Below are positions 3,725-59,908 of a DNA stretch of 64,000 nucleotides, piece after piece. Under the pieces are notes generated by a model that saw only the letters and a list, made by a program, of their open reading frames with translations, had not been told where the DNA came from and did not search any database. The stretch comes from a virus (Duplodnaviria; Heunggongvirae; Uroviricota; Caudoviricetes), in the IMG/VR virus record IMGVR_UViG_2681813305_000007; one strand, 5' to 3'. The position numbers and the translations under genes were made by a program. Position 1 is the first letter of the stretch. Every line of letters starts with the position of its first letter.

Positions 3725-4666
3725 TTAGATGCCGTCGACGTAGGCCAGAGTTTCCGGATAAACCGGCTCTACTGCACCCAGCTTGCCGTAATAGGTTACG
3801 AGCTGATACAGGCCGCGATACTGGATCGGCACGCTCATCAGCGGAACCATCGGGAAGCGAACGTATTTCTTGTCGTTGGTGTAGAACATCATGCGATCAG
3901 AGTTCGACACGCCACGACCTTTCGCCCATTTCACCGGACGGATGTTCAGAGGACGCCCGTTCTGGTGGTATGCGATGGTGTTGGTTTCCAGATAGGTCAG
4001 CAGGGACTGGTTACCAGCGCTGGATACGATGGTGCTTGCCAGCAGAGAGAACTGCTCCGGCGGGATCAGCATGTCCGTCGGTACCATGGAGTAAGCTGAG
4101 TTGGCCCACGCAGCACTCAACCCGGCATTAATGCTCGCCCGGATTTCGTCAGCGGTGGAGGTCGCCCAGGTCTTCGCGGCGTTGGTCGGCGTTACCTGCG
4201 TCAGGTTCAGCAGGCCTTTAACGTTCAGACCGGAATCGCCGATATAAACCTGCTCGTCCGTGTCCATGTTCCACTTCAGCTGCATGCCGTCGTACTTCTG
4301 CGTGTCGATCGGGCGACCAACCTGCGCAGCTGCCTGCAATTCAGGAACGGTCCAGCCAAGCTCCATACCCCACAGTGTGAGCGGGAAGCCAGTTTTTGCG
4401 ATGTCGACGTTAAGTCCAGCCATCGCGGTCGCGGCTTTGCTAAGCCAGTTTTTACCGTTAGCATTCGGCGTACCGGCAGCAGCAAAAGTGGTGTTAGTGA
4501 ACGAGCTGATCTCATCAGCAATAGACACGTCTTCACGCAACTGGATATCGCGCGACCAGGTGAAATTCACCAGCGGCAGATTCAGTGTCTGATCGAGACG
4601 CTCCAGCTCATGGACAAGAAAGGCACCAGTGCCGTCGACTGTCGCCTGGTCAAATGTCATTGGCAT
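3725..4666 (-). CDS. Major capsid protein (DUF2184-like family, from memory)
   Basis: 313 aa, immediately downstream of the decoration-like and scaffold-like genes. Prophage B carries the same gene trio (47891..49276, 47459..47887, 46353..47447). Confidence 0.6.
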   Translation of the reverse strand: MPMTFDQATVDGTGAFLVHELERLDQTLNLPLVNFTWSRDIQLREDVSIADEISSFTNTTFAAAGTPNANGKNWLSKAATAMAGLNVDIAKTGFPLTLWGMELGWTVPELQAAAQVGRPIDTQKYDGMQLKWNMDTDEQVYIGDSGLNVKGLLNLTQVTPTNAAKTWATSTADEIRASINAGLSAAWANSAYSMVPTDMLIPPEQFSLLASTIVSSAGNQSLLTYLETNTIAYHQNGRPLNIRPVKWAKGRGVSNSDRMMFYTNDKKYVRFPMVPLMSVPIQYRGLYQLVTYYGKLGAVEPVYPETLAYVDGI

Positions 4667-4677
4667 TTGCGATTTCC

Positions 4678-5172
4678 TTAAATATTGAAGGCCAGCTCAA
4701 TGTTGCCGCTGGTGTCGCCAGGGCCATTGAAGTAAGCGTTAGTGATCTGGACGGTATTCGAGCCATCAGCGGCGGCAAGGAACGCGCCGAGAGGGCTTGA
4801 GGCGGATGGTGTGGCCACTCGCATGTAGACCGGGCCATGCAGAGCAACGCTGGATGCATCCGCGCCGATGTTTACCGTGACGTAACCACGTACCAGGCAA
4901 TCGCCGGTGAAGTTTTTACCGCTGCCTACCTGCTGGACTTTATCCGGCTGGCTGGCGGTCGGATACGGACGAACATAAATGCCCACCAGCACCGACGCTG
5001 TATCGCTCGCAGCGATTGGCACAAATTTCCCGGAGGAAATCTTGCCGCCAAGGCCGTAAGCGGGGAAAAGGTTGGAGGAGTCCAGCAGTTGAGGTTCAAC
5101 CGTCAGATCCTGCGGACGAGAAATTGCCCCGGCGATGCCCGCTGGCATCCGGTAAAGAAATGTATTACCCAT
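4678..5172 (-). CDS. Head decoration / cement-like protein (DUF2190-like)
   Basis: 164 aa between the scaffold-like and capsid genes; its counterpart in prophage B is the 142-aa ORF 47459..47887. Confidence 0.45.
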   Translation of the reverse strand: MGNTFLYRMPAGIAGAISRPQDLTVEPQLLDSSNLFPAYGLGGKISSGKFVPIAASDTASVLVGIYVRPYPTASQPDKVQQVGSGKNFTGDCLVRGYVTVNIGADASSVALHGPVYMRVATPSASSPLGAFLAAADGSNTVQITNAYFNGPGDTSGNIELAFNI

Positions 5173-5175
5173 TAG

Positions 5176-6378
5176 TTAGCCTCGTTTAGACCAGAATTCC
5201 TGCGCGGCCTGATTCATACCGGCAATGGTTTTAACAGTGGTGGCAGTCTGCGTTTGCAGGCTGTCGACGGTTTTGGTATTGCGGTTTTTCGCCAGCTCAG
5301 AAACAGCCGTGAAAGCCATATCTACCGTGGCTTTTTTCAGCTTGCTGATATCGGCATCACCGACAATAGAGCGAACCAGAGATTGATCGGCAGAGGCAAG
5401 CACCTGGCGCTTGAATGCTGTCGGCTTCGCCTTTTCTGGCAACTGGATGCCTGGCTGAATCAGATCGGCACGATAAGCGGCATCGCCGGTAACCTTACCC
5501 TCCTCTTCCTTTTTCTCCTCTTCATCCTCGGCATCGCCGGTACCAGGAGCAGCTGCCGCAGGCGTGAGTTTGGCCACCGCCTCAATCAGCGCCTTACCCC
5601 ATGCAGGAATTTCTTCCTCACCATCGCCAGTACCAGGCAATGCCGGGCCGGGAAGCGGATTTTGCGGTGCAAGGTTGATGACCACTCCGCCGGGTGTCAT
5701 AGAGGTCGATACATCGTTATCGCCCGTGACATCATCAGGCGGGTTATCAATGAGACTTGCCATTTCGGCAGCGTCCCCGGTTTTACGGGCCTTCAGGAGC
5801 CGGGTAAACCAGTTTTTAGTAGTGCTTGGCATAGAATCCCCTATTGCACAACGGAAACCGGCCCGCCCGTTAGGGACAAGGGCCAGATGGTTAGCGGTAA
5901 TCGCAGATTGCTTTGCGAGACCAGGTGAAATCTGTTCGTAATCGGCGTCGTACCCGCAGCTGACCTCGTCATCACCATCATCAATGGCCTGCAGGGCTTC
6001 CGGGGTTTTGACGATGACATCAGCCAGCAGCAGATCGATTTTATCGTCCGTGCCACGTCGTACGTTCTGGATGTGCCCGTGAGCCAGCTGGCGCCAGTTA
6101 TCAGGGGTAACAAAGATGATCTGCCCGTCAAAATCTCGCGGATGGCCGATAGTGACTGCCATTCCTTCGAATGACGCCATGGCTCGCTCGCTGAACACCT
6201 CTTCTGGCATCCGGCGTACGATGACCTTCCCTCTGTCGTTTGGGACAAGCTCAGGCCGCTCTGTGGCGTCGTACTCCTGCTCACCAGTCCTTGCGATCGG
6301 GACGTCCTTAAACAGGACAGACCCATCAGCAAGTTGAAAGCGGGTATTACCCAGGCGGGTTTTAAAGAAATATTTCAT
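5176..6378 (-). CDS. Prohead scaffold/protease-like protein (DUF2213-like)
   Basis: 400 aa with a conserved N-terminal domain (…[14 protein letters not shown]…) followed by an acidic, low-complexity Pro/Gly/Glu-rich C-terminus typical of scaffolds. It is the same family as 47891..49276. Confidence 0.5.
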
Positions 6379-24036: not shown

Positions 24037-24228
24037 ATGGTAGACATTGAAATGATTGACGAGGAAGAGGCGATGCGGATGATCCGAGTATCTTCACGCG
24101 TGACCATCCGGAAATACACCGAGCGCTATAATTTCCCCAAGCCGGTCCGGACCTACCCTAAACAGTATCTGCGCTCTGCTATTGTGGAGTGGATCTTAAA
24201 CGGGGGAGTCAACCAGAAATCTTCCTGA
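24037..24228 (+). CDS. xis: Excisionase / AlpA-family DNA-binding protein
   Basis: MVDIEMIDEEEAMRMIRVSSRVTIRKYTERYNFPKPV… is an AlpA/MerR-like HTH. It is convergent with int and overlaps it by 20 nt; a GGTGAG RBS is present. Confidence 0.6.
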   Translation: MVDIEMIDEEEAMRMIRVSSRVTIRKYTERYNFPKPVRTYPKQYLRSAIVEWILNGGVNQKSS

Positions 24229-25390
24229 TATGCCAGAATATCTTTTCAGCATACAGATCGTAGGCGTCTTTCTGTTCGGCAATCCAGTCATGCTTGTTAT
24301 AGACAGAAAGCACGCCACCAAGCTCATGCCCCAGCATTTTTTCGATGACGTGCGGGGCAACCCCCTCTTCGGATAGCCGGGTTGCCAAGGTGCGCCGGAA
24401 ATCATGTGAAGTAAACTCACCAAACCCCAACGAGTCTTTGATTCTTCTCAGAAATTTATTTGCACCAGAAATAGTTATAGGGCTTTTCAGGTCCTCGCCC
24501 GGGAAAAGTATATCCCCATACGTCATTTCAGCTTTTTTCAGCAAATCATCTGCCGCGGAGAAAATTGGGCGCCTGATAATTTTGTTGGTTTTGCTTTTCT
24601 CTGCCGGAACAACCCATAACCCCTCCTCTCGGTCAAATTCACCCCTTATAGCCAGCCGAAGTTCGCTATTCCTGGCGCCGTACAGCATTAGCAATTGATG
24701 AAGCAATCGGTTAGAAGTTGACCCTCGACTTCTTTCTATAGCCATCCAAATTTTGGCAAGCTGGTTATAGCTGAGTGTGGTCTCTCCAATCACAGGTTTA
24801 ACACCGATGTCTTTCGGCTGCAAAAGCATGAGCTCGGTTGTGCTAACGAACTGTCGCCGCGTACACCAACCAATGGCGGACCTGAGCTGTATCAATAAAT
24901 GCCGGGCTCGGCGAGGATTGATTTTCTCCTCTTCGGTAAACCTCTCAACCCACAAGCGGACTGGGATATCCTCAACCGGAATACCGGGAAAAGCGTCACG
25001 CATGTGCTTTATAACCGTTGACTTATAAAGCGCTATCGTCTTAGCCCTTAACGTTACGTCAACGTAATTTTCCTTCCAGTAATCCAGGCAATCCTTTACC
25101 GTTGGCTTACTCTTGGATTTGTTGCCACCAGCCAGCGTTCGGGGGTCAATGCCTTTGTCTGCCGACTCCCTCAGGTCTGCAACGATATTGCGGGCATCGC
25201 GCAGCGTCAGCGCTGGGTAGCGTCCAAGCCCCATTCGGTTCTGCTTTCCTTCCCATCGGAACCTAAACTGAAAGCTGATCACGCCTTTGGGGGTTATGCG
25301 AACTCCAAGCCCGTCAGAATCCGTAATTTCAGCAGGCCCAGAATATGGTTTACCATAGATAGAGCGAAGCTTTGTGTCACTGATTGCCAT
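24209..25390 (-). CDS. int: Tyrosine integrase (P4-type, DUF4102 N-terminal arm-binding domain)
   Basis: The C-terminal catalytic motifs are …HDFRRTLATRL… HVIEKMLGH… VYNKHDW (R, HxxR, Y). Confidence 0.9.
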   Translation of the reverse strand: MAISDTKLRSIYGKPYSGPAEITDSDGLGVRITPKGVISFQFRFRWEGKQNRMGLGRYPALTLRDARNIVADLRESADKGIDPRTLAGGNKSKSKPTVKDCLDYWKENYVDVTLRAKTIALYKSTVIKHMRDAFPGIPVEDIPVRLWVERFTEEEKINPRRARHLLIQLRSAIGWCTRRQFVSTTELMLLQPKDIGVKPVIGETTLSYNQLAKIWMAIERSRGSTSNRLLHQLLMLYGARNSELRLAIRGEFDREEGLWVVPAEKSKTNKIIRRPIFSAADDLLKKAEMTYGDILFPGEDLKSPITISGANKFLRRIKDSLGFGEFTSHDFRRTLATRLSEEGVAPHVIEKMLGHELGGVLSVYNKHDWIAEQKDAYDLYAEKIFWHIRKISG

Positions 25391-25700
25391 GTTAGTTTTC
25401 TGTACTCATCACTTTGGTATTTTATGTACTTATTCTGTACTCAATATCGCATGAACGAACATAAACAACAATATCAAATCATGTACAACCATGCGCAACA
25501 ATTGGCAGCACAACTAAAATAATAATAAAAAATCATATACATAAACATCTAACCGTATTCATTCTTGTCTGAACAATCTCAACCATGTGCAAAGCCCACA
25601 CCTTGCCGAAGATTACTTGAACAAAATTATAACTAACTGATTTAAAATAAAATTAATTAATAATTACCTAAAATATGTACTTAATTATGTACTCACAAAC
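25391..25700. repeat. Integrase arm-type repeat cluster (attP-like P and P' arms) in AT-rich DNA
   Basis: There are five copies of (T)ATGTACT(C/T)A / TCTGTACTCA: three at 25393-25445 next to int and two at 25674-25697. Confidence 0.45.
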
Positions 25701-25741
25701 CTAAACAATCCATTTGACTAGTAATCATCTCTCGCTGAATA

Positions 25742-25757
25742 CTGTATATTCAACCAG
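25742..25757 (+). promoter_or_regulatory. LexA (SOS) box upstream of dinI-like gene
   Basis: CTGTATATTCAACCAG fits the CTGT-N8-CCAG form of the E. coli dinI operator; it lies 17 nt upstream of the RBS. Confidence 0.55.
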
Positions 25758-25773
25758 CACAAAGGTGATTATC

Positions 25774-26022
25774 ATGCGTGTAGAAATCAGCATTGCCAAA
25801 GAGAAAGCCGCGAAAATGCCAAAGGGGTCAATGGAGGCCTTGAAAGACGAAATGACCCGTCGAATCAGCAAGCAATATGACGACGTTGAAGTGATCGTGA
25901 AAACGGCCAGTAATGATGGACTGAGCGTTTTGTGGGCGACTGATAAAGAAATCGCCAAAGAATTTGTAGAGACCACTCTAAAAGACGCTTGGGAGACGGC
26001 TGACGACTGGTTTGTGCGTTGA
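25774..26022 (+). CDS. dinI: DinI-family damage-inducible protein
   Basis: [31 protein letters not shown]… …[15 protein letters not shown] parallels E. coli DinI (MRIEVTIAK… WESADDWFV). An AAAGGTGA RBS is present. Confidence 0.75.
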
Positions 26023-26244
26023 TCGGTCTATATAATCATTCGCGGTGATCTCCTGCCTGAGTCACTACCCCCACCAGGCAGCAGCATACATTAGCTGCCG
26101 GGTGGGCCTATGTGCAACACACTTTGAACTATTCACTAAATGAGCTGCCTGAATAATAACCACTATTAATAAGGCTCACTATGACTACTCTTCTGATCAC
26201 CTCAAGCGTTGTATTTGTCATCCTCGCACTATTTACCATAAGCG

Positions 26245-26529
26245 TCATAAAACTATGGATTGGAGTCTCCAACAACCCTGACTAGCACCATCAGAGCCCC
26301 TCCCCATCCCTGCCATCATCCACAGCCTGTTTTCGCTATGGTCAGGCGTCTTATCGACGAAATACGTTTGTTCCCGCGCGATCCAGGAGTTCGCCTCCAC
26401 CTCGGAGAAGTGGATGCCGCGCAGGCGCAGTGCGGTAACGAAGTCTCGGGTGTGAATGTACTGGAACCCCTTGGAACTGCGCAAAATGGACTCGCGGAAA
26501 GCCGCGGCGATGTCTGTCTGTCGAAGCAT
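26245..26529 (-). CDS. LexA-controlled small protein at the prophage end (candidate trans-acting antirepressor of the Gifsy/186-Tum type, or another SOS effector)
   Basis: 94-aa ORF with a GGAGGG RBS 9 nt from the ATG; a consensus LexA box lies immediately upstream, and the gene is convergent with dinI. Confidence 0.45.
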   Translation of the reverse strand: MLRQTDIAAAFRESILRSSKGFQYIHTRDFVTALRLRGIHFSEVEANSWIAREQTYFVDKTPDHSENRLWMMAGMGRGSDGASQGCWRLQSIVL

Positions 26530-26549
26530 GATCTGCCCTCCAATTAATG

Positions 26550-26565
26550 CTGTATTTATATACAG
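26550..26565 (-). promoter_or_regulatory. Consensus LexA box (CTGTATTTATATACAG)
   Basis: A perfect CTGT-N8-ACAG palindrome with an AT-rich spacer, 21 nt upstream of the 26529 start codon. Confidence 0.65.
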
Positions 26566-26633
26566 TAGTTTTGTTGGTGGGCAAGGTCAATACAAGATGT
26601 GGCTATTGGTTACTGTGACAGCGACATAAGTCT

Positions 26634-26843
26634 TTAAGGGGCCTCGTTTTCGCTTTGGGACCAACTCAGCGTATAGCCAGTGCTTACTGATATAACGGCT
26701 TGCGCATCATCATTACCGTTTACCAGTAAACTGATGATGTCATCACGCTCAAACTGGTTCAGTTCATCCCAGATAAATACTTCATGTGAGAATTCTACTT
26801 TTGCCCCTGAAACAGTCTCAATCTTAACTGCGATTGTTGTCAT
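26634..26843 (-). CDS. Hypothetical small protein, last gene of the prophage B tail operon
   Basis: 69 aa, with a 4-nt overlap to the upstream gene. Confidence 0.35.
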   Translation of the reverse strand: MTTIAVKIETVSGAKVEFSHEVFIWDELNQFERDDIISLLVNGNDDAQAVISVSTGYTLSWSQSENEAP

Positions 26844-27571
26844 ACCGTCTCCCCTCTTCCGGTCATGATACTAGTTCCCAGGGCTATGGCATTTGTGATA
26901 TCTCCTGCGGAGAACTCATTACCCCATGCACCAAAGAACCCAATGTCGCCTTTGAGCATCGAGGATCCTGCGGCACTTGCACCGAGCATGAGAGGACTGC
27001 CAGCAACGTTAGCCAGATAGCCCGTTGGGCTAGCAGCAATTGCGGTTCCATCAGACAAAGTTAATTTGTGATTGCGGTTAGGGGAAATGACACCACAGGC
27101 CACATACCATTTGTCAGCAACGATGGTTTGTCCGGTTGCGTAGTAAATACCCATTGAGCCATCAGGCCACGCAACACGCAGCTCCAGGCGCTGCCCGGTG
27201 GGGTTGTATGTGATGGCAAAGCCGTGACCGGAGCCGACGGTAAGATCTCGACAGTCCAGAACGTACTGGAATGTGTCGATGGCACTGAAACGGAAAGCCG
27301 TCAGGAAAGATAGTCCCGCAAGTCCAGCCTCCGTAAAGTCTGTTTGACTACCTGCAGTACCTTGAAACTGCAGTCCATATGGTTTCAGCTTCTGAACGCC
27401 CTGCTGCACGCTAAATCCGTGCCGCGAGTTATCGAGAGGCGTCAACAGGTCGTAAGCGACCTTCGGATTACTGATTGCCGATAGCGGAGAAGCTACAGGC
27501 TCAAAGTGCTGCTTGCTCCAGTCGGTGATGATACCGTCCGAGTTGAGCAGAATACGTGTTCCATTAGACAT
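26840..27571 (-). CDS. Tail fiber-associated protein / possible second receptor-binding protein
   Basis: 243 aa, Gly/Ser/Thr/Ala-rich, directly downstream of the tailspike. Confidence 0.45.
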   Translation of the reverse strand: MSNGTRILLNSDGIITDWSKQHFEPVASPLSAISNPKVAYDLLTPLDNSRHGFSVQQGVQKLKPYGLQFQGTAGSQTDFTEAGLAGLSFLTAFRFSAIDTFQYVLDCRDLTVGSGHGFAITYNPTGQRLELRVAWPDGSMGIYYATGQTIVADKWYVACGVISPNRNHKLTLSDGTAIAASPTGYLANVAGSPLMLGASAAGSSMLKGDIGFFGAWGNEFSAGDITNAIALGTSIMTGRGETV

Positions 27572-50871: not shown

Positions 50872-52267
50872 CGGTTGTCACCTTGTCATTCGGGTTAGGT
50901 GGTTGCTTTGGCTCAGGCTGAGGGTCGAGGCCTACAATCTCGCGTAGTTCGTTGGCAGTGAATGGCGGCTCGCCACCATAGAAGCCCGACGTTTTCTGGA
51001 CGATATCAGCCAGTTTCGAGGCGTTCTCGATTTTCTCCTTCTCGCCAGGCGCCAGCAGGTCAGTCCATGAAATGGTGACCTCTCCGTTTGTCGGCGGATC
51101 TATAATGCCCAGGGTCCAGAAGCGCTCCAGCAAGGCTGTGATTCTGTCAGTCAGGAAGCCGTTGCGGCGGGTATTGCGGCGAATGGCCCAGTCTGTTTTA
51201 TCCTCATCGCTCGCCAGTCGTCCGGTCTGCTGTCCAAACAGGATGGTGAAAGGTATCTGTACGGAGGCGGCCAGTTCGTTCGCGGTGACCTCCCACGTCG
51301 GCCCCGGGTCGCCTGGCGTAACGCTCAGAACATGCATCTGCCCGGCCTGCATCACGGCGGCCGCATCGGTGCCGCGGTTAAGCTTGTTGACCTTGTCCCC
51401 CATCGCTTCGCCGAGGTCGGCATAACCAGCCTTCTTCGCCAGATCGGACAGCGTAGCCATGTCTGTTTCTTTGCTGAACTCGACCGCGATCTGCCGGCTG
51501 GCATTTTTCAGGAAGCCCTCAGCGCCACCGCCGGAAATCTTCTCAAGGTCGAGTCCTTTGTTGTATCCGGCCTCAAGCAGGGGGATACCCGACAGAACGT
51601 TGTCATCCTCTGAGCCTTCGCAGAACAGGATCACCCTGCTCGGATGCACAGGCTCACCGCGCGTCGGTCCGACGAAAGCCTCGTCTCCAACCGGCTGCTC
51701 GTTGAAGTTGAACATCTTCGGCTGGCCGAACGTCTCGGACTGGCGATCGTTATCCCATTCGGCAACTGTCAGTTGCGGCTCCCATACCGGGATAAGTTTT
51801 ACCAGCGCTGACTCGCCCAGGGATTTCACCAGCCTGGTATCTACTGGATCGCTCCATGCCTTGCTATCTTTCACCTGCAGCAGCAGTGCGGAGTAACGCC
51901 CGACCATATTGCGGCGATCGGCATCCTTCACCTTCGGCCACAACTTCTTCATAAACTTGGTTACTTTCTTTTCCCAGGCGTTTGCTTTCTCCGCTTTCTG
52001 CGCTTCATCACCGTCAACAATGACCGGATAGTCCTGCCAGCAACCATCCAGAAGACGATGCACCACTGCGAAACCCGCGGCGTTGCGGCGGTACATGTTG
52101 TAGAAGTCATGGAAGGTAATGGTTCGCGGGTAGCCAAATTCCTGATAGAGCGTCGGGCGCTTGGTATTGCCACCGCCGATACCGATGGCGTTAAGGTAAT
52201 TCGCTCGCCGCATTTCAGTGGCGAGATTGTTCACAGCCAGTTGAAGGCCGTTATCTTGTTCGCTCAC
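50846..52267 (-). CDS. Portal protein (DUF1073-type, from memory)
   Basis: 473 aa, after TerL, with an acidic C-terminus. Confidence 0.7.
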   Translation of the reverse strand: MSEQDNGLQLAVNNLATEMRRANYLNAIGIGGGNTKRPTLYQEFGYPRTITFHDFYNMYRRNAAGFAVVHRLLDGCWQDYPVIVDGDEAQKAEKANAWEKKVTKFMKKLWPKVKDADRRNMVGRYSALLLQVKDSKAWSDPVDTRLVKSLGESALVKLIPVWEPQLTVAEWDNDRQSETFGQPKMFNFNEQPVGDEAFVGPTRGEPVHPSRVILFCEGSEDDNVLSGIPLLEAGYNKGLDLEKISGGGAEGFLKNASRQIAVEFSKETDMATLSDLAKKAGYADLGEAMGDKVNKLNRGTDAAAVMQAGQMHVLSVTPGDPGPTWEVTANELAASVQIPFTILFGQQTGRLASDEDKTDWAIRRNTRRNGFLTDRITALLERFWTLGIIDPPTNGEVTISWTDLLAPGEKEKIENASKLADIVQKTSGFYGGEPPFTANELREIVGLDPQPEPKQPPNPNDKVTTDDPLADDT

Positions 52268-52279
52268 TGGCGATGCTCC

Positions 52280-53752
52280 TTAGAAGAATACTGTGCCGAC
52301 CTGCTTGCGGTTGTTCTTCGCCACGGCAAAGTAACGAAAGCTGTCGGCGCCGTGCGATGTGAAGTCGTGAAGGGGTTTGTCTTTCCAGCAGCCGCGCTTG
52401 TCGTCCCACTCCTTGCGGTAACCTTCGAGGTGGGAAATGCCAACAGCGCACTTCTCCTCATCGAAAACGCAGGACTTGAGGATTTCACGCACCGACTCAA
52501 TGCCGGTGTCGATCCCCGCTTTAGGCACAACGCGGAAGTTCATCGAATACACCCGGCCGTCAATCTCGTATCCCTCGCGCGCCAGCTCTTTGCGAGACTT
52601 CGCATCAGCTGCAAACTCGCGGTTCTCGATGTCGTGCGGCCCCCAGTGCTCACCGTACTCATAGCCGCGGTCTTTCAGCACCTTCATGTAGTGCCGAAGC
52701 CCTTCGCCAGAGTTTTCGTAGTAGTCGATGACGTGGAACTCTTCGCCGACCTCGCGAACGAACCAGATCGCCGTGGAGTCCCCCACACCAATATCCCAGA
52801 ACGTGTTAACCGGTAGATGGGAGTTATCCGGGATTTGGCCGATCCGCTTGTTGGTGTAGAGCCAGCGGAATTGTTTGGCGTAGTACGCGCCCTCGACCGA
52901 CTGCTGGAACGCCTCTGCCGGAATGGTCGGGTATTCGCGCTTCATGTCGTCGCCGAGCGTCTTTTCTTTGGCGTAATACCACGCCTTTTGGCGTTCGTTA
53001 ACGACTATGCCGTGTTTCGCCTCCATCTCAGCAAAGTACTCAATCAGGCGTGCAGGGAGCAGTTCTACCGGGTCAATTGCGTACTGCGGATTCTTCCACC
53101 AGGAGAAGAAGAAAAACTTCCAGTCCAGCGCAGATAACGGTTTGCCCTGCAGCAGTGCTTTCTCTGCCGCTTGGCAGTAATCGAAGAAGTAACCCGCCCT
53201 GCCCTCTGCAGTGCTCTCGATAGTAGCGAAGCATCCTGTCGATACCGCCTCAAACGCACCGGTGACGATTTCACGGGCTTTATCCGGATACTTTGCGCAT
53301 ATCTTTCCGAACTCGGAAACGTGCAGGTAACGCAGCGTGCCGCCACGAAATGAGGTGCTTACGTAGAGTGATCCGCCCTTCTTAAAGACCAGCTCGCCGG
53401 CTGAGTCGTTGCTCGCCGGATTGGCTGCCTTTATCTCGGCCGGCAGCTTGTCGTAGGCATATTTCACCTTTTCCCGGAACAGGCGCTTTGCGTCATTCAG
53501 CGTATGGGCGATCAGCGCGCACTTTGCCGACTCGAACAGAGCAGCGTCGAGCTGGATGATGCACACCTCTGTGGTGAAGCCGAGCTGGCGAGCTTTCAGG
53601 ATGATGTTGCGGGTATGGATTCCCTCGAAGTATTCCCGCTGCTCCGGCGTCATTCTGAAGCGGGTCGGCTTGCCTTCTTTGTCGGTGATCCAGTAAAGAT
53701 TGTTCAGCCGCCAGTCTTTATCAGCTAGCAGCTTGAGATGCTCAGGCTTCAT
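52280..53752 (-). CDS. terL: Terminase large subunit
   Basis: 490 aa with an ATPase N-terminus (…ILKARQLGFTT…) and a nuclease C-terminus (…WDIGVGDSTAIWF… HDFTSHGADSFRY). Confidence 0.85.
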   Translation of the reverse strand: MKPEHLKLLADKDWRLNNLYWITDKEGKPTRFRMTPEQREYFEGIHTRNIILKARQLGFTTEVCIIQLDAALFESAKCALIAHTLNDAKRLFREKVKYAYDKLPAEIKAANPASNDSAGELVFKKGGSLYVSTSFRGGTLRYLHVSEFGKICAKYPDKAREIVTGAFEAVSTGCFATIESTAEGRAGYFFDYCQAAEKALLQGKPLSALDWKFFFFSWWKNPQYAIDPVELLPARLIEYFAEMEAKHGIVVNERQKAWYYAKEKTLGDDMKREYPTIPAEAFQQSVEGAYYAKQFRWLYTNKRIGQIPDNSHLPVNTFWDIGVGDSTAIWFVREVGEEFHVIDYYENSGEGLRHYMKVLKDRGYEYGEHWGPHDIENREFAADAKSRKELAREGYEIDGRVYSMNFRVVPKAGIDTGIESVREILKSCVFDEEKCAVGISHLEGYRKEWDDKRGCWKDKPLHDFTSHGADSFRYFAVAKNNRKQVGTVFF

Positions 53753-54354
53753 TACGCCCCCTGAGACAAGGAATCCATCAGTTCAGAGAGTTGCTTAACA
53801 GAATTGTCGCCTTCCGGCCCGTCGATGTCGTAGGCCTGGCGTTCAAGTCCGATCAGGTTCTTCAGCGCTTCGCTGAGAGCTTTCACCGATTTAACGCGCT
53901 CCGGCATGCTGATGACCTTGTGGTAAATCTCGTTAAGCTTGTCCTGTCCCTTGTCGTCTGGTTCAAGCATCAACTCTCCGAGCTTCTCCAGCGCGGCCAC
54001 ATCAGCACACTCGGCGCCTAGCTCATCAAACAGCGCGTTCGTTATCTGCCGGGCGCGCTTGATATCACCGCGATGCTCCATGCGGACACTGGCGATTACC
54101 TCTGCAGTCGCTTCAATCAGTACGCGTTCGTTCAAAGTGACTTCACTGCGTACCTGCTTGCGTACCTCTGCTTTGCGTACCAGATCGTCAGCACGTTCCT
54201 TCACTTTCGCATTCAGGTCGCGAGACCAGTCGTCACGCTTTGCTCGCTTACGGATAGCACCTTCGCTGATACCGTGCTGCGATGCAATTTCACGGAGGGA
54301 CATCACCCCGGCCCGGTACGCCGTCTCGATGGCCTCCCAGTCCGGTGTTGCCAT
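53752..54354 (-). CDS. terS: Terminase small subunit
   Basis: MATPDWEAIETAYRAGVMSLREIASQHGISEGAIRKRAKR… is homologous to the prophage A TerS N-terminus; an ATGA overlap couples it to TerL. Confidence 0.6.
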   Translation of the reverse strand: MATPDWEAIETAYRAGVMSLREIASQHGISEGAIRKRAKRDDWSRDLNAKVKERADDLVRKAEVRKQVRSEVTLNERVLIEATAEVIASVRMEHRGDIKRARQITNALFDELGAECADVAALEKLGELMLEPDDKGQDKLNEIYHKVISMPERVKSVKALSEALKNLIGLERQAYDIDGPEGDNSVKQLSELMDSLSQGA

Positions 54355-54570
54355 GGTTCTGTTCCTGTGGTTAAAGCCATTAATAAAGCCACCCGGTTAA
54401 TGAACTGCCCTCCATAAAGGTGGCCTTTGTGATATCAATTAATCTACTGAAAACACTTGTAAGCGTTATCCAATATCTGTATTTGTGAAGTAATGTCATT
54501 TTTATTCAAAGTAATGGCATGCAAGATACTTATTGATGTCGCTCCTATCATCCAGCCATGAGGTATTGCA

Positions 54571-54735
54571 GTGATAAACATTTTTCTGAAAATTTTCGGT
54601 TTTTTTGCCTCCATATGGTCAGGCCTAAGCAACGAGCAGAAAGATAAAATCATCAACATCCTTGTTGATGCATTTGAAGGGATTTTTCGCAAGTATTTTC
54701 GCGATAGTAAAAATGAGGTGAAGCATGGTTAAGCT
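54571..54735 (+). CDS. Possible 54-aa membrane miniprotein (GTG start), first gene of a plus-strand AT-rich moron
   Basis: A GAGGTA RBS lies 5 nt upstream; the N-terminus VINIFLKIFGFFASIWSGL is hydrophobic; the stop overlaps the next start. Confidence 0.3.
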
Positions 54736-55054
54736 TAAAGATGTGGTGCGCAATGTCATCTCTGGAGCTAATAAACAGCTTCCAGACCATTCGACAACAC
54801 AATCTACTGCATCTACTGCTCTGGCAACTGAGATTTACACCAAAATCTCTTGTATAGGTCCCAGAGCGTTAGGCATTGGTGGAGATAAGCAATCTGATTT
54901 TTCCAATCAAGCTGCTGAACTGGTGACCGATGAAAAATTTCTTGACGAGCTTCAAGATAAAATTGGTAATCCTCAAGCCAATGAGAATGAGGACGAATTT
55001 ATTCACAGAGCCAAAAAAGAAATGCGCAACCTGTTGAAATCTAAATTAAAGTAG
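54725..55054 (+). CDS. Hypothetical protein (plus-strand AT-rich moron between terS and the lysis genes)
   Basis: 109 aa with a GAGGTGA RBS; a hairpin plus T-run lies at 55105-55136 downstream. It runs opposite to all surrounding phage genes. Confidence 0.4.
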   Translation: MVKLKDVVRNVISGANKQLPDHSTTQSTASTALATEIYTKISCIGPRALGIGGDKQSDFSNQAAELVTDEKFLDELQDKIGNPQANENEDEFIHRAKKEMRNLLKSKLK

Positions 55055-55159
55055 ATAAAACAGCTAGTCTTTGCATTCTGCTTACAATGCAATAAACGAT
55101 AAGAGCGGCTCTTATGGCCGCATTTACCATTTTTCTTATGGGAATGGAGAAGTGCTATC

Positions 55160-55624
55160 TCAATTGCATTGAGTGTTGATGTACTCCTGCAGCGTCTTCA
55201 GGGCCGTCTGATCTCGCTGGATGCCGGCTCTGATACCGAGAACGTTTCGTCCAGCAACTGAAGAGAGTTCGACGGTGGCATCATCGCCCATGCTGGGGGC
55301 GCCGGCAGTTTGGGTTGAGGCTGACACTGGACACTTGCCTTTGACGAGCACCCGACCACCATTATCAAGCTTACGCTGCAGAGCATCATTTTCAGCTTTT
55401 GCATCGGCTAACTCCTTCGTGTATTTGGCATCGAGCGCTGCGACTTCTCTCTGGCGGGTCTGCATGTCAGCGATGGTGTCTTTCGCCAGGCTGAGCTGCT
55501 CAGTCGCTTTGTCCCGCTGCCTTTTGAACTCGGTGGCGTTGTCGTGGTAGTGACTGGCCAGCCACCCAAGGCAAACAACCAGGCAGATCACAATGGCGCT
55601 GATAATGGCTGCTAATCGGCTCAT
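55160..55624 (-). CDS. i-spanin (Rz-like)
   Basis: N-terminal TM segment plus coiled coil. The first approximately 25 aa are near-identical to prophage A Rz; the sequence then diverges. Confidence 0.6.
   Translation of the reverse strand: MSRLAAIISAIVICLVVCLGWLASHYHDNATEFKRQRDKATEQLSLAKDTIADMQTRQREVAALDAKYTKELADAKAENDALQRKLDNGGRVLVKGKCPVSASTQTAGAPSMGDDATVELSSVAGRNVLGIRAGIQRDQTALKTLQEYINTQCN
55198..55404 (-). CDS. o-spanin (Rz1-like lipoprotein) fully embedded in Rz in the +1 frame
   Basis: It has the lipobox MMLCSVSLIMVVGCSS and is Pro-rich. Confidence 0.5.
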   Translation of the reverse strand: MQKLKMMLCSVSLIMVVGCSSKASVQCQPQPKLPAPPAWAMMPPSNSLQLLDETFSVSEPASSEIRRP

Positions 55625-56151
55625 TCATCTATTCCCCAACATGCCAGTGCGCTTTCCTGATCACGGCGAGAAACCTGGCCATAACAATTGTTGGAACGCA
55701 CGCGGCAATCTTTTCCGCCATCAAAAATCCACCGGCGAATTTCAGCGCAGGCGCCTTTCCGGTCACCGGCATTCAGCTTGCGGTAGAAGGTGGAAGGAAA
55801 GCACTTACCGGGCCCGATGTTATATGGGCAGAAACTGGCAATCCCGACCTTTTGAGGAGGCGTCAGACGAACACGCACATTCTGATCTACCCATGCCAGC
55901 GCCTCATTGCGCTCGACGGCATTCACCTGATCGCATTTGGCCTGGGTTAACTTCATCCCCTGCGTTACAGGTCTTCCATCTACCCGGGTAGCTCCACGAC
56001 ATATCGTCCATATGCCGGCGCCATCGCGGTATGAAGTGAGGCTCTTGCCCTCTTTCTCATTCAGGAACTGATCCATGAGAACGGGAGCTGATGCGCCAGC
56101 GGCGATAAGCGCCAGCATGGCCGCGCTGAGTTTTGTTTTCAGGTTAGCCAT
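55621..56151 (-). CDS. SAR endolysin (GH24 lysozyme)
   Basis: 176 aa, differing from 11869..12399 at only a handful of positions. Confidence 0.8.
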   Translation of the reverse strand: MANLKTKLSAAMLALIAAGASAPVLMDQFLNEKEGKSLTSYRDGAGIWTICRGATRVDGRPVTQGMKLTQAKCDQVNAVERNEALAWVDQNVRVRLTPPQKVGIASFCPYNIGPGKCFPSTFYRKLNAGDRKGACAEIRRWIFDGGKDCRVRSNNCYGQVSRRDQESALACWGIDE

Positions 56152-56153
56152 CG

Positions 56154-56411
56154 CTATTCATCCTGCGGTGGCGGGCCACCATAACCACGATCGAGGGACT
56201 GCTGATACATCTTCGTCCAGCGGCGCTTAAAGTAGAGATTAGTCAGGTAAGTCGCTACACCGATTATCACGCCGCTGGCCAGAGCAATAAAATTCCAGTC
56301 AAGCCCATGAAACCAGTCATAGGTCCTTGCCAGCCCGGTGCATATAAGGCCGCCTGACGTGCAGTACGAGGCCGCCGAAAAGATTTTGTCAGGCATTTTC
56401 ATAGTCTCCAC
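56154..56411 (-). CDS. Holin
   Basis: 85 aa, near-identical to 12402..12659. Confidence 0.6.
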   Translation of the reverse strand: METMKMPDKIFSAASYCTSGGLICTGLARTYDWFHGLDWNFIALASGVIIGVATYLTNLYFKRRWTKMYQQSLDRGYGGPPPQDE

Positions 56412-56672
56412 CTCCGATAATGTTCGGGGTGCTATCTGTAGTCAGTAAAAGGTTCAGGGCCGTCGGGCTGATTTACCAACAAAGCGTCGAGGGTGATTCC
56501 CGCGACCCTGAAAATAAAAAAGCCTGCGGTTAGGCAGGCAATAAGCATGAGGGTAATAGCAATGTCGGTGATGACCGAAAATACCCTGGCTGGGTCTGGC
56601 GGCCTGTTGCGCTGCGCCAACAACGCCCTGATGGATTGGATTATGAGCCCGTCATCAGGTCAGGCCATTATC

Positions 56673-56747
56673 TGGCGGGACAGGAAGGATTCGAACCTTC
56701 GACCATTCGGTTAACAGCCGAACGCACAACCGCTGTGCTTCTGACCC
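56673..56747 (-). tRNA. Phage-encoded tRNA-like gene, anticodon GTT (Asn) by manual folding
   Basis: The minus-strand sequence GGGTCAG-AA-GCAC-AGCGGTT-GTGC-G-TTCGG-CTGTTAA-CCGAA-TGGTC-GAAGG-TTCGAAT-CCTTC-CTGTCCC-G-CCA folds as a 7/4/5/5-bp cloverleaf with a TTCGAAT T-loop and an encoded CCA. There is one T-T mismatch in the acceptor stem and A at position 8. Confidence 0.5.
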
Positions 56748-56812
56748 CGAAATGAAAAAGGCCGCGAAATAGCGCAGCCCTTAATGCTTTATGGTTTTGC
56801 CTGAATTAGGCG

Positions 56813-56841
56813 AAAAAAAGCCCGCTCAGAGGGGCGGGCAG
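56813..56841 (-). terminator. Intrinsic terminator (GCCCGC(UC)-loop-GCGGGC plus U7) upstream of the tRNA-like gene
   Basis: A GC-rich hairpin followed on the minus strand by TTTTTTT. Confidence 0.55.
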
Positions 56842-57215
56842 AAGGTAGGAAATACTGATTCTTCAACGGTTCGAGGCGCACCTAATAGTCCGAGCTACCG
56901 ATTTACCAGGAGAGCGCTCGTTTTCCGTTACTACCTTTTAAACATAGCTGGAGAAGCCGAAACGGCAACCCCACTACCAAATGTCTTAGTAGTACTGCGT
57001 GGTGCCGGGTGCCTCCCGGTGAGCATGCCCCAGTCGGCATGGCCCGCGCTGCATTTACAGATCACTGTAAGTGACTGGTCGCCCCTCCGCATAGGGGGAT
57101 TCACCACACCAAAAATTTAACATCTGATGAAACTCGTTTCAATGCTCTACGACGATGTGACAGGGGTACTGATGCAATGCATCTCGCGAATACCCCTGTC
57201 GTGTCGCCGGAAAGC

Positions 57216-57244
57216 AAAAAGCCCAAGGCGTTAACCTCGGGCTT
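57216..57244 (-). terminator. tR'-like intrinsic terminator just downstream of Q (prophage B)
   Basis: The minus-strand AAGCCCGAGG-UUAACG-CCUUGGGCUU is followed by UUUUUGCUUU. Confidence 0.55.
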
Positions 57245-57311
57245 GAATTCTTTGTGTGTCGACAATCGAAGCTATGGCGACGATATCAGATTTACATGAA
57301 ATATATGCCTT

Positions 57312-58001
57312 TCAGTTCGGTTTTGCAAGACTTACATCTAAATTTGTCGCCTTTTGTTGTGAACGTGATCGCGTTACCGATATGAGAGCGTCGCTATCAA
57401 GCTTCACAAAACTGCTGCGCAGCGCCAGCCAATGAGGGAGGTAGGTTTCTGTCCATGTGGACTTTGCTACACCAACCAGCTCCGCCAGCGACTGGTATTC
57501 ATACGTCTCCCGCCCTGCCAGCTCGGCTTTGACATCCTGCGCGGCCAGCCAGATAAGTTGACGAAGGCGATCGACAGTCTTCTTCGCAATGCGTACGCCG
57601 GCCAGCTTCTTGCTGAATTGCTCCCATGCCCACCGGGTGATCGTCTCCTGGTGCTCCCAGCGGATATTGTCGCTGTAATTCCACAGCAGCCACGCTTTCT
57701 GATGCTCTTCCAGCGACAGCAGAGCCCGGCGCCAGCTGGCCGTCGAATACTCAACAGGCAGAACGAGAGCGATCGATGAACCCTTAGCGCGTGACTGGCT
57801 GCCACTCATCGGCGGGCCATCCGGGTTAACCATTTTTTGCTTTGCCTCGCTATAAACTTTCTTCCGGCCACGGCTGCGCGCCGTAGCGGTAAATTGCGCG
57901 TTCTCTGCAAAGGCCACCAGTTGCCCTTTCGTCGCACCGCTCAGATCGGCGGTGGCCACTATCAGCTGCTGGCGAACATACTGGAGGTATTGGGTGTTCA
58001 T
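57312..58001 (-). CDS. Late-gene antiterminator Q-like protein
   Basis: 229 aa in the Q position (upstream of tR' and the lysis cassette, downstream of the nin genes); a different family from prophage A's Q. Confidence 0.5.
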   Translation of the reverse strand: MNTQYLQYVRQQLIVATADLSGATKGQLVAFAENAQFTATARSRGRKKVYSEAKQKMVNPDGPPMSGSQSRAKGSSIALVLPVEYSTASWRRALLSLEEHQKAWLLWNYSDNIRWEHQETITRWAWEQFSKKLAGVRIAKKTVDRLRQLIWLAAQDVKAELAGRETYEYQSLAELVGVAKSTWTETYLPHWLALRSSFVKLDSDALISVTRSRSQQKATNLDVSLAKPN

Positions 58002-58528
58002 TTGGCAGCCTCTTGGTCGTGAAATGAAGGAATATAGAAATTTGCATATAACTGTCTGGCATACTCAGTCCTGGCTTTCGCCGCTTCTTGTGCAGTAGCA
58101 AAAAGACCAACGTAATGTGTTCTCCCGTTGGCCACTATGCTCGCCTGCCATTTCTTCCCTAACTCATTCCAGTACACCCCGGTAAATCCAGACTTATTTT
58201 TGCTTTTAGCTGCTCTATTTGCCGAGTTTTGAGAAAATGTAACGGCTCTTAAATTTTCAATGGCATTATTCGAACGATTCCTGTCAATGTGATCTATAAC
58301 CTCAGGCTCATCCCCGTACACATATAGCCAGGCAAGCCTGTGGGCCTTTCTGTTCTTTCCATAGATACGAATAACTCTGTATCCCTGACCATCAATGCAT
58401 CCTGCAATATCGCCAGGGTGCGCACTAGATGAGGCCTTTATTTTCCATCTAAAAATGCCGGTCTGCGGGTCGTATTCAAGGAGAGTCCTTAACAGCTCTT
58501 GGGTTATTGATTTTTCTGATTTACTCAT
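57998..58528 (-). CDS. HNH homing endonuclease with AP2 DNA-binding domain
   Basis: It has an HNH_3 region (…VIDHIDRNRSNNAIENLRAVTFSQN…) and an AP2-like region (…SGFTGVYWNELGKKWQASIVANGRTHYVGLFATAQEAAKAR…). Confidence 0.65.
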   Translation of the reverse strand: MSKSEKSITQELLRTLLEYDPQTGIFRWKIKASSSAHPGDIAGCIDGQGYRVIRIYGKNRKAHRLAWLYVYGDEPEVIDHIDRNRSNNAIENLRAVTFSQNSANRAAKSKNKSGFTGVYWNELGKKWQASIVANGRTHYVGLFATAQEAAKARTEYARQLYANFYIPSFHDQEAAK

Positions 58529-58654
58529 AACTCCCCCTTGAGAGACTTGCGATGAAATTGCGCAAAATTAAATAGTCAACCAGCACGGTTCCGCGGCTAC
58601 GCAAGAGGCGGAGCTTTTTCCAGCGGTCTCGGATGCGTTCGATAATGTCGTGGT

Positions 58655-59290
58655 TCATGCGGCCTCCCGCTGTTTCAGTGCTTTGAGCTTGGCGCGGTAC
58701 TCATCGCGGATACGAATAAAGTCTTCCCGGCGGTAGTTGGTCATTTCGTGGGGTCCGTTAAGCCAGTCGACATACTCCTGTCCGTAACGAGCGACCAGGC
58801 CAGCTTCGTATTGCTGAGCAACCGTCAACTCTTTGGCGGTGTACTTACCGGCCCCGGCATTGCACGATTTGCACTGCTTATGAGCGTTGCGCTCTTCAAA
58901 ACGCAACTCAGGGTAAGCGCCGACCGTTTTGAAGTGGCCGCAGTCCCACTGGCCGCCATGCAGATCAGGCGGGTTGGTCTCGCCGCAACTGATGCATGGC
59001 AAAGCAGCATCACGAGCGCGGATGTAGGCGTTGAATGCCTTCTGAGCCTGGGCTTTGTAGTAACCGTTAGGTCTGAGCTCAGCCAATCTTGCTTTACGGC
59101 GCTGGCGCCCCTCTTTCTCGGATTCGCGCTGGCGCTTAACCGCTCTGGCCTTCGCCGCTTCCCGGGCTTTTGCTGTCTGTTTTTTGCCGATCGCGCTAGC
59201 GCATTCAAAACTGCATACCACCTGCCCTTCCCGGGCAGGATGGAACCATTCGCGGCAGTGGGCGCATTTACGACGTGCTGGTTTACGCAT
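58655..59290 (-). CDS. ninG: NinG/Rap-like recombination endonuclease
   Basis: It has N-terminal and central Cys clusters (CAHCREWF…C..C, CISCGE…CGHF…CKSCN) in the lambda NinG arrangement. Confidence 0.7.
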   Translation of the reverse strand: MRKPARRKCAHCREWFHPAREGQVVCSFECASAIGKKQTAKAREAAKARAVKRQRESEKEGRQRRKARLAELRPNGYYKAQAQKAFNAYIRARDAALPCISCGETNPPDLHGGQWDCGHFKTVGAYPELRFEERNAHKQCKSCNAGAGKYTAKELTVAQQYEAGLVARYGQEYVDWLNGPHEMTNYRREDFIRIRDEYRAKLKALKQREAA

Positions 59291-59457
59291 GTGGCCTCCG
59301 TGCTCTCAGGCGTAGCCACTTCTTATCGACCAGGCGGGCGGTATAGTCTTTCAGGGTCGGGATGTCGGAAGGCTTATCTTCGACCTTGCGCTTGCGGCGC
59401 GCAGGCACGCGGAAGATGCCGCGCTCAATTACTTTGGCGAGAAGGCTGCTCATCAGG
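59283..59457 (-). CDS. Small basic nin-region protein (58 aa; start chosen at the ATGA overlap with NinB)
   Basis: From 59457 it reads MSSLLAKVIERGIFRVPARRKRKVEDKPSDIP…; the longer track ORF overlaps NinB. Confidence 0.3.
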
Positions 59458-59908
59458 CCTCCTGCTTTTGCTGCAGTTGCTGATATTCGCAACCGTGTGG
59501 AATGGTGAGAGCCAGACCAAACTGAGCGCACCAGGCCTCTACTTTGGTCAGGAAGATGTGCATTTCGCCGGTATCAAGATCGGAGGTATGCCGGGGTTCC
59601 CAGGTTGTGGTTTTCTCACCGGTGATGAAGTCGGTGTATGTCACCTCTTCGCAGCCGAGATAGGTCTTTTTTAGGTTCCGCTTAACCCACTCGGGAGTTG
59701 CGTCGGTACGTCCTGAGTTAATCAGGTATTCGCTGATTTCCGCGTACCACATGTGACTGAGTGCGTTCTGGCTCAGGCTGCGTTTTTCACGCCACTCTTT
59801 GACCTGCAGGCGAAGACATTTCCCGTCAGAGAGCTGCTCCTGAAGAATCTTGCCTATAGCGCTGAAGTTGCCGTTGTGCAGCTTGATGCCGCATTGAGGG
59901 ATGTTCAC
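59453..59908 (-). CDS. ninB: NinB/Orf-family recombination mediator
   Basis: …RSLSQNALSHMWYAEISEYL… parallels lambda NinB …RSLDQNRKLWACLGDVS…; it lies directly upstream of ninG. Confidence 0.65.
   Translation of the reverse strand: MNIPQCGIKLHNGNFSAIGKILQEQLSDGKCLRLQVKEWREKRSLSQNALSHMWYAEISEYLINSGRTDATPEWVKRNLKKTYLGCEEVTYTDFITGEKTTTWEPRHTSDLDTGEMHIFLTKVEAWCAQFGLALTIPHGCEYQQLQQKQEA

Follow-up and report, generated by a model that had tools for sequence, protein, structure and literature searches.

The SOS promoter and the 94-residue open reading frame

The DNA analysed here, a stretch of 64,000 nucleotides (nt) termed the window (IMG/VR record IMGVR_UViG_2681813305_000007), harbors two tandem prophages, A and B, of a Klebsiella host. 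Near one end of prophage B lies a small open reading frame (ORF) of 94 amino acids (aa), which follows a perfect LexA operator and belongs to the phage protein family phrog_3893. Judged by its sequence and that of its relatives, this ORF is almost certainly a LexA-repressed accessory gene of the prophage, which would be switched on by DNA damage in the lysogen. The gene and its control elements are listed below.

26245..26529, minus strand: the 94-aa ORF with an ATG start, a phrog_3893 member (ORF list and profile match)
26585..26590, minus strand: −35 hexamer TTGACC of the predicted SOS-controlled promoter (read from the sequence)
26567..26562, minus strand: predicted −10 hexamer TACTGT, formed by the first six operator bases, at a 17-nt spacer from the −35
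26548..26567, minus strand: predicted LexA operator of 20 nt, TACTGTATATAAATACAGCA, with the core CTGT-N8-ACAG at 26550-26565
26537..26541, minus strand: ribosome-binding site (RBS) GGAGG, 7 nt upstream of the ATG (read from the sequence)

Read toward the ATG on the minus strand, these elements follow each other in the order −35, spacer, −10/operator and GGAGG (cttgtaTTGACCttgcccaccaacaaaacTACTGTATATAAATACAGCAttaattGGAGGgcagatcATG), and the predicted LexA operator thus overlaps the −10 of the promoter, as is expected of a member of the Enterobacterales LexA regulon. The 16-mer CTGTATTTATATACAG at 26550-26565 is the sole perfect CTGT-N8-ACAG within the 64 kb, a pattern that by itself is expected by chance about 0.7 times per window. 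Operators were scored by a symmetrised position weight matrix (PWM) built from 24 Escherichia coli SOS boxes, whose scores are approximate and are here applied to a Klebsiella host. On the coding (minus) strand, TACTGTATATAAATACAGCA attained 26.7 bits, which is the top score of the 64 kb and level with the best known sites, while the next-best score after the two strong LexA sites of the window was 10.7 bits. The perfect SOS box and the good RBS described by the initial annotation were thereby confirmed; its spacing of 21 nt required correction, since the box does lie closely upstream of the ORF but is separated from the ATG by 20 nt when measured from the 16-mer core and by 18 nt when measured from the 20-mer operator. 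A strict promoter scan of the window did not pick up this promoter, because TACTGT agrees with TATAAT at only three of six positions.

Family phrog_3893 and conservation of the promoter

The phrog_3893 profile comprises 79 positions and has no annotated function, and its members are normally 79 aa long and mildly basic. The window ORF matches it with an E value of 1e-37, residues 1-78 being aligned with profile positions 1-78. A large protein collection contains 280 homologues, nearly all of 79 aa and every one named "hypothetical"; a search at the 50% clustering level gave 70 representatives, and conserved residues are seen throughout the family alignment. The family is present in 40 phage records, including HK225, HK140, mEp390, Eeyore, and Enterobacter and Erwinia phages, and in just 19 of 5,426 complete E. 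coli genomes. The exact 94-aa protein is indexed in 9,828 blocks of an assembly collection, and at the DNA level identity is 100% to P18-100 and P12620-1, both Klebsiella phage records. Scans of the ORF against Pfam (E ≤ 1), NCBIfam and PADLOC gave no match, and a profile search of the family against PDB sequences returned only noise. SOS-box-controlled prophage accessory genes are already known as a kind, and the family is catalogued as phrog_3893; literature searches found no paper on it, and neither its function nor its near-universal control by LexA nor the coupling with dead UmuD'-like genes (discussed below) appears to have been described in the literature searched.

The conservation of the promoter was followed in 44 loci taken from one-genome-per-species contigs (Klebsiella, Raoultella, Enterobacter, Leclercia, Kosakonia, Citrobacter, Erwinia, Rahnella and others), 43 of which had sufficient upstream sequence. 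A LexA box of at least 16.9 bits by the PWM was located 11-23 nt ahead of the start codon in 38 of these 43 loci, as well as in five phage loci. In essentially every box-aligned locus (about 40 distinct ones), TTGATC or TTGACC was found exactly 17 nt 5' of TACTGT, whereas the spacer, the interior of the box and the leader were all variable. This layout of −35, 17-nt spacer and TACTGT operator is kept in homologues down to about 36% protein identity (range 36-84%), and GAGG-type motifs recur at the equivalent position in the homologous loci. The aligned upstream regions constitute a textbook phylogenetic footprint of a promoter predicted to be occluded by LexA, and the conservation of the layout across relatives rules out a chance origin of the box.

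Selection on the coding sequence points in the same direction. Pairwise Nei-Gojobori estimates over 77 ungapped codons gave a median dN/dS of 0.15 for the family, and the window ORF compared with the Klebsiella phages RothD and RCIP0114 gave 0.12-0.20. The conserved promoter-operator footprint and the low dN/dS together argue that the 94-aa ORF is a real and selected gene, whose SOS control is very likely. The initial annotation, which had proposed LexA control of a genuine gene, is thus supported by the operator score, the footprint and the dN/dS of 0.15.

Several loci depart from the common layout or origin. The only full-length family member that has no LexA box directly upstream occurs in Enterobacteriaceae bacterium LSJC7 (L024, about 5690-6230), where the gene order is inverted and a UmuD'-like gene lies upstream of the small gene (−313..−17); in this locus, the LexA box may instead stand ahead of the umuD'-like gene. 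In three K. pneumoniae loci (L062, L063 and L067), a 1.9-kb group II intron (locus positions 4072-5980) is inserted in sense orientation immediately after the LexA operator, within the 5' untranslated region of the 94-aa gene, at TACTGTATATAAATACAGC|intron|ATTAATTGGAGG, which is equivalent to 26548/26549 of the window. The intron begins with 5' GTGCG... and carries a 495-aa reverse transcriptase ORF (PF00078), and both would be transcribed from the SOS promoter. Some gene callers read from the 3' end of this intron into the ORF, resulting in "proteins" of 146-161 aa (P0001 and P0018). Enterobacteriaceae-type copies of the cassette are also borne by contigs of metagenome-assembled genomes labelled Saccharibacteria, Geobacteraceae and Bacillota (L014, L035 and L043), the DinI of L014 being 100% identical to that of the window; these copies are probably binning contamination and not a sign of true hosts.

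The UmuD'-like partner and the phage SOS cassette

In 36 of the 44 genome loci, the 79-aa gene overlaps by one base a downstream gene of about 105 aa, whose product starts with MGFPSPA.DY.E. RothD and RCIP0114, both Klebsiella phages, have the same coupled gene, and Erwinia phage EhrS_59 encodes an 80-aa homologue that is separated by 2 nt from the UmuD-like gene following it. An N-terminus of the MGFPSPA type is the hallmark of processed UmuD', and the partner proteins match phrog_3469, annotated as "UmuD-like". In Erwinia phage Midgardsormr38, the one example aligned by eye, the SGDSM serine motif is missing from the partner, and two partner examples fell below the Pfam S24 thresholds. These features suggest that the partner is a catalytically dead UmuD'-like protein that would have lost its catalytic serine. 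The two proteins differ in charge, with a median isoelectric point (pI) of 4.3 for the partner and 8.8 for the small protein, the net charge of the latter being about +1.6.

The same control region also occurs ahead of umuD'-like genes that are not preceded by a 79-aa gene. In phage N15, the LexA box lies 4 nt before the umuD'-like gene encoding gp26; in Kp4871-1, the operator directly precedes the umuD'-like gene; in P1, a LexA site is annotated before humD. In CobraSix, the layout of TTGATC, 17 nt and TACTGT stands ahead of the umuD'-like gene, which is followed by a gene for a 422-aa putative translesion polymerase (umuC-like). HumD and gp26, which belong to phrog_811, are longer and less degenerate than the usual partner of the small gene (phrog_3469, about 105 aa). 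Taken as a set, these arrangements are consistent with the 79-aa gene being an optional first cistron of a phage SOS "UmuD'" cassette. P1 Lxr was considered as a homologue of the small protein and rejected, being encoded by a 190-aa divergent gene that gave no tblastn hit.

A second arrangement links the family to dinI. In several E. coli and Enterobacter loci (L002, L026, L027, L032, L035, L037, L044 and L001), dinI is divergent from the family gene and lies 89-101 bp upstream. In HK225 (L002, 2947-3003), one palindromic LexA box is situated between the divergent dinI and the family gene, which suggests that a single operator would serve two divergent SOS promoters in loci of this type. The DinI coding sequences annotated in HK225 and Eeyore appear over-extended at the N-terminus, and the one in Eeyore runs over the operator into the gene on the opposite strand.

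The remodelled 3' end of the window copy

The window does not carry the coupled phrog_3469 gene, and its homology to cassette-bearing Klebsiella phages is restricted to 26288/26298..26572, which corresponds to the promoter, the operator and the first 77-80 or so codons. From about residue 73, the 94-aa variant has a lineage-specific replacement tail ending in ...LWMMAGMGRGSDGASQGCWRLQSIVL. Klebsiella and Raoultella alleles that diverge by as much as about 30% over their first 70 residues all have this tail in invariant form. The sequence opposite the tail contains a further small gene.

26181..26285, plus strand: ynaM-like ORF of 34 aa, hydrophobic, MTTLLITSSVVFVILALFTISVIKLWIGVSNNPD (PF23676 YnaM, E 1.7e-7, above the curated cutoff)

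The ynaM-like ORF overlaps the 94-aa ORF in antisense over about 14 codons at its 3' end and is called as a gene in related genomes; the tail may be conserved owing to this antisense gene. Other variants are fused in frame at the same point to internal or C-terminal pieces of a DNA invertase (...MMAEMERELIVERTRAGL...). The junction, ...ENRLWMMA|, lies at about 26290-26320 (codons 70-78 or so; proteins P0012, P0014, P0033 and P0122) and is followed by one of three continuations, which are NMGRVL, a stop and the umuD'-like gene; the GMGRGSDG... tail with the ynaM/dinI block; or the invertase fusions. Since the different continuations share one junction, the gene has a site of recurrent recombination at its 3' end. 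The window copy would accordingly represent a partner-less variant, in which recombination near codon 72 exchanged the original 3' end and the umuD'-like gene for the ynaM-like/dinI block.

The loss of the partner raises the question of whether the window copy is a functionless remnant of the orf79-umuD' cassette, which has retained its SOS promoter because the rearrangement is recent. The replacement of the C-terminal 20 or so residues by sequence antisense to the ynaM-like gene, the predicted disorder of this tail and the invertase fusions of other variants fit such a view, but the reading frame, the RBS and the perfect operator are intact, and the dN/dS of 0.12-0.20 was obtained in comparison with relatives that do contain the partner. 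Moreover, in Klebsiella and Raoultella the 94-aa form is associated with several divergent N-terminal alleles, its exact sequence recurs in thousands of assemblies, and phages of the HK225 type likewise keep the gene and have no partner. We therefore regard a dead remnant as very improbable.

Genomic context at the end of prophage B

Prophage B, which is lambdoid, is encoded on the minus strand and reads from right to left through replication, Q, lysis, terminase, head and tail genes to a 993-aa tailspike, which is followed by a 243-aa Laminin_G_3 protein, a 69-aa ORF, the SOS promoter and the 94-aa ORF. The 243-aa ORF (Laminin_G_3/ConA-like, phrog_17054) and the 69-aa ORF (phrog_18390), located at 26634-27571 on the minus strand, are conserved and functionally unannotated, and they co-occur with the tailspike and not with the SOS cassette. 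The features beyond the 94-aa ORF are given below.

26070..26106, no strand assigned: GC-rich inverted repeat with a 13-bp stem and one bulge (folding), between the convergent dinI-like and ynaM-like/94-aa genes
25774..26022, plus strand: dinI-like gene, convergent with the 94-aa ORF (Pfam DinI, E 3e-16)
25740..25759, plus strand: second predicted LexA operator, TACTGTATATTCAACCAGCA, 14 nt before the dinI-like ATG (22.7 bits by the PWM, second-best in the window)
25714-25719, plus strand: −35 hexamer TTGACT of the dinI-like gene promoter (promoter-like hit)
25604, no strand assigned: insertion point of prophage A, the left limit of the DNA common to K. pneumoniae genomes without prophage A (blastn)
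24209..25390, minus strand: P4-type integrase gene of prophage A (integrase domains)

The inverted repeat is possibly a bidirectional terminator, a role for which it is weak, as it has no T-run and the z-score of its region is just −1.06. The dinI-like product is about 70% identical to the DinI of lambdoid Stx and Eib phages, and the Stx1a phage examined (L070) has dinI as its final gene, pointing inward and lying about 210 bp from the annotated att duplication. On these two grounds, the possibility that the dinI-like gene belongs to the host was rejected: it is taken as the terminal gene of prophage B, and the 94-aa ORF as the penultimate one. The initial annotation was right that the ORF neighbours a dinI-like gene at the tail-fibre/att end of prophage B, but not that it lies at the extreme end.

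The identical protein is encoded in six other K. pneumoniae contexts, which show the succession of the ORF, dinI, about 850 bp and a type VI secretion system cluster. In the four loci compared by blastn (L062 and L064-L066), homology to the window ends at 25604. Multiple TGTACT/ATGTAC repeats at 25400-25700, on the outer side of the prophage A integrase gene and next to it, resemble the arm-type sites that an integrase binds and would belong to the prophage A att region. Because the homology ends at 25604 next to this integrase gene and these repeats, prophage A directly adjoins the end of prophage B, and their description as tandem prophages is therefore correct.

Predicted structure

An AlphaFold2 model of the ORF, computed from a 32-sequence alignment, has a mean predicted local distance difference test score (pLDDT) of 74 and a predicted template modelling score of 0.60. 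Residues 1-75 are ordered (H2-14, E23-26, H27-36, H43-53, E57-59 and E69-72) and are predicted to adopt a winged-helix topology, H-E-H-H-E-E, as far as residue 75 or so, while residues 76-94 have a pLDDT below 50 and are predicted to be disordered. Foldseek against PDB returned nothing below an E value of 0.1, its list consisting mostly of Fur, PadR, MarR and viral winged-helix proteins, and the search against BFVD returned only the HK225-type homologue. The most conserved stretch is helix 3, F(S/T)xx(D/E)ANxWIERYQ, which is not typically basic for a recognition helix. As modelled, the winged-helix fold is generic and does not discriminate between DNA binding and protein binding.

This fold calls attention to the possibility of an SOS-induced DNA-binding regulator, either a transcription factor or an architectural or recombination-directionality-like factor, which would have its target near attP/attR or at promoters of the phage or the host. 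The predicted topology, the nearest structures (PadR, MarR, Fur, ArsR and viral winged-helix binders) and the median pI of 8.8 would suit a regulator of this kind, as would the position of the family gene, which always adjoins the att/int junction in free phage genomes. The conserved helix (D/E)ANxWIERYQ is, however, acidic to neutral and carries a conserved Trp, which is atypical for DNA contact; the net charge is just about +1.6, and prophage B already possesses an HTH_17 excisionase gene beside int. In view of these properties, a DNA-binding regulator is an unlikely identity for the protein.

Proposed role in the SOS response

In the lysogen, LexA would be bound to the operator over the −10 and the transcription start of the sigma-70 promoter, keeping the gene off, and DNA damage would turn it on through RecA-stimulated cleavage of LexA. 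During lytic growth, read-through of the late operon probably also expresses the 94-aa gene, since it points the same way as the tail genes and the intervening DNA yielded no terminator. The protein may then act by protein-protein contact in the RecA*/UmuD' branch, for instance by pairing with UmuD' of the phage or the host or by modulating it, and would not itself be the induction switch. A role on the UmuD' axis is suggested by the translational coupling, by the promoter-operator shared with phage umuD'(C) cassettes, by the complementary charges of the two proteins and by the linkage to dinI. The combined proposal, in which a LexA-repressed accessory ("moron") gene has a role in the RecA*/UmuD' damage-tolerance branch, is advanced tentatively as a plausible reading that falls somewhat short of probable.

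Several points weigh against this proposal. The link to UmuD' is one of guilt by association, and no homology assigns the function. The window copy, HK225 and several others have no partner and are nevertheless under purifying selection, which requires a partner-independent role, and the occurrence of the UmuD'-like family in 109 phage records, as against 40 for the small gene, indicates that the partner does not need the small gene. A mildly basic winged helix, as modelled, could equally bind DNA. Furthermore, the PWM behind the operator assignment in Klebsiella was built from E. coli sites.

An SOS effector with no relation to UmuD' or repressors was also weighed; it could inhibit cell division or growth, serve in exclusion or defence, or modulate LexA or RecA directly, as GIL01 gp7 or DinI do. 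Several classes of small SOS-induced prophage effectors are known, GIL01 gp7 among them (PMC4551915), and the single LexA box shared with a divergent dinI in HK225-type loci would accord with membership in this group. There is no specific positive evidence for the class, the PADLOC, Pfam and NCBIfam scans gave no match, and the sequence is neither hydrophobic nor toxin-like, which makes such an effector rather improbable.

LexA-controlled prophage genes shape the response of lysogens to DNA damage, as caused for example by fluoroquinolones, through induction, mutagenesis and RecA modulation. The family is widespread, with thousands of assembly blocks and with relatives across Enterobacteriaceae, Erwinia and Rahnella. 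Being tightly coupled to phage UmuD'-like genes, it may represent a component of phage-encoded damage tolerance or SOS mutagenesis that has gone unrecognised, and would bear on the evolution of resistance in K. pneumoniae.

The antirepressor hypothesis

The initial annotation had interpreted the protein as an SOS-induced antirepressor acting in trans, which would inactivate the repressor of prophage B and/or of prophage A or other co-resident prophages and thereby couple their induction. The gene shares the hallmarks of GfoA/GftA, Tum and AntC, as it is small, under predicted direct LexA control, outside the immunity region and beside dinI (PMC3121763). BLASTP and hhalign nevertheless disclosed no similarity to GftA, Tum or the putative AntC. 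GftA, the one Gifsy-type antirepressor compared, was represented by a GTG-start ORF of 73 aa between dinI and the irsA-like gene of Gifsy-2, and gave no BLASTP alignment with the 94-aa ORF at E ≤ 100 and an hhalign probability of 0.2%. Tum and the AntC ORF of N15, the latter putative because it was deduced from the position of the second N15 LexA box, each scored about 0.2% by hhalign, and no Pfam ANT, KilAC or Bro-N domain, as found in the P22 Ant class, was present in the ORF at E ≤ 1. The missing homology is weak evidence against an antirepressor, because small antirepressors have little or no sequence similarity among themselves (PMC11323111).

The architecture of the locus is also unlike that of the Gifsy/Fels type to which it had been likened. 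The Gifsy module is a single co-directional LexA-controlled operon of dinI, antirepressor and irsA (Lemire et al. 2011, PMC3121763), and in Gifsy-2 it sits between the replication genes and Q, in the nin region. In prophage B, dinI and the ORF face each other under separate operators, both at the tail end, and no irsA-like gene was identified next to the 94-aa ORF.

The repressors also argue against this hypothesis. The Gifsy, 186 and N15 antirepressor systems exist because their repressors are not cleaved, and a non-cleavable repressor had likewise been assumed for prophage B. Its immunity region lies outside the window, and the CI sequence comes from locus L012 (K. pneumoniae CP010361.1), which matches window positions 51229-64000 (12,772 bp) at 100% identity and then continues into the immunity region. 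This CI has 229 aa, an HTH_3 and a Peptidase_S24 domain, the motifs GDSM and VKRL (an intact Ser/Lys dyad) and an Ala-Gly site. Repressors composed of HTH and S24 domains are also encoded by prophage A, whose S24 CI was correctly recognised by the initial annotation, and by the family-carrying phages HK225, Eeyore and Midgardsormr38; with prophage B, all four family carriers examined thus have S24 repressors. The AntC-dependent CB of N15 matches S24 only in part and has neither catalytic motif, which validates the dyad as a criterion. Phages with a cleavable CI can nonetheless bear antirepressors, as exemplified by Qtip of VP882 (PMC11323111) and FsoA of Fels-1 (PMC3121763).

The small protein and the repressor are, in addition, uncoupled in their evolution. 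The family members of HK225 and Eeyore are 92% identical, whereas their CI proteins are 22% identical, which is not what a cognate pair of repressor and antirepressor predicts, and the conserved partner of the family is UmuD'-like and not related to a repressor. With the absence of homology, the unlike architecture and the S24 repressors taken into account, the antirepressor role is no longer favoured and appears unlikely; the coupled induction of the two tandem prophages finds no supporting evidence, both repressors being of the conventional self-cleaving type.

A broader variant would have the 79-aa protein, with or without its UmuD'-like partner, act as an SOS-triggered module targeting S24-family proteins in general (CI, LexA and UmuD). 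Such a target would explain the near-identical copies in heteroimmune phages, and, if true, the module would act with a broad spectrum to amplify or couple prophage induction and SOS output among co-resident prophages. We consider this variant very unlikely, and the tentative UmuD'-branch proposal remains our preferred reading.

Comparison with known systems

The Gifsy antirepressors GfoA, GftA and GfhA resemble the 94-aa ORF in being small (73 aa in the case of GftA), LexA-controlled, outside the immunity region and associated with dinI (PMC3121763). They differ from it in that no similarity to GftA was detected and in that they belong to a co-directional operon of the nin region, in contrast to the convergent genes found here. 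Furthermore, the Gifsy repressors are short and uncleaved (PMC3121763), whereas prophage B has a CI with an intact S24 domain.

Tum of 186 and AntC of N15 are similar to the 94-aa ORF as small phage proteins whose sigma-70 promoter is overlapped by an SOS box, and the fusion of Tum to a DinI-like domain echoes the dinI neighbourhood of the ORF. The differences reside in the hhalign probabilities of about 0.2% and in the repressors, since N15 CB does not have the S24 Ser and Lys, unlike the repressors of the family-carrying phages.

A mechanistic analogy, and only that, is offered by the Acinetobacter pair DdrR-UmuDAb, in which a small protein works with an S24-family SOS protein. In Bacillus phage GIL01, gp7 works in a comparable manner with LexA (PMC4551915). 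DdrR and gp7 have about 50-80 aa, like the family, but no homology is expected, their gene arrangement differs and their hosts are unrelated.

The P1 humD (with lxr) and N15 gp26 cassettes are alike in carrying a LexA operator directly ahead of a UmuD'-like gene in an accessory region. The phrog_3893 gene normally stands between that same operator and the umuD'-like gene, and P1 and N15 have no 79-aa gene at this place. The window presents the reverse of the P1 and N15 arrangement, in which the 79-aa-type gene is present and the umuD'-like gene is absent.

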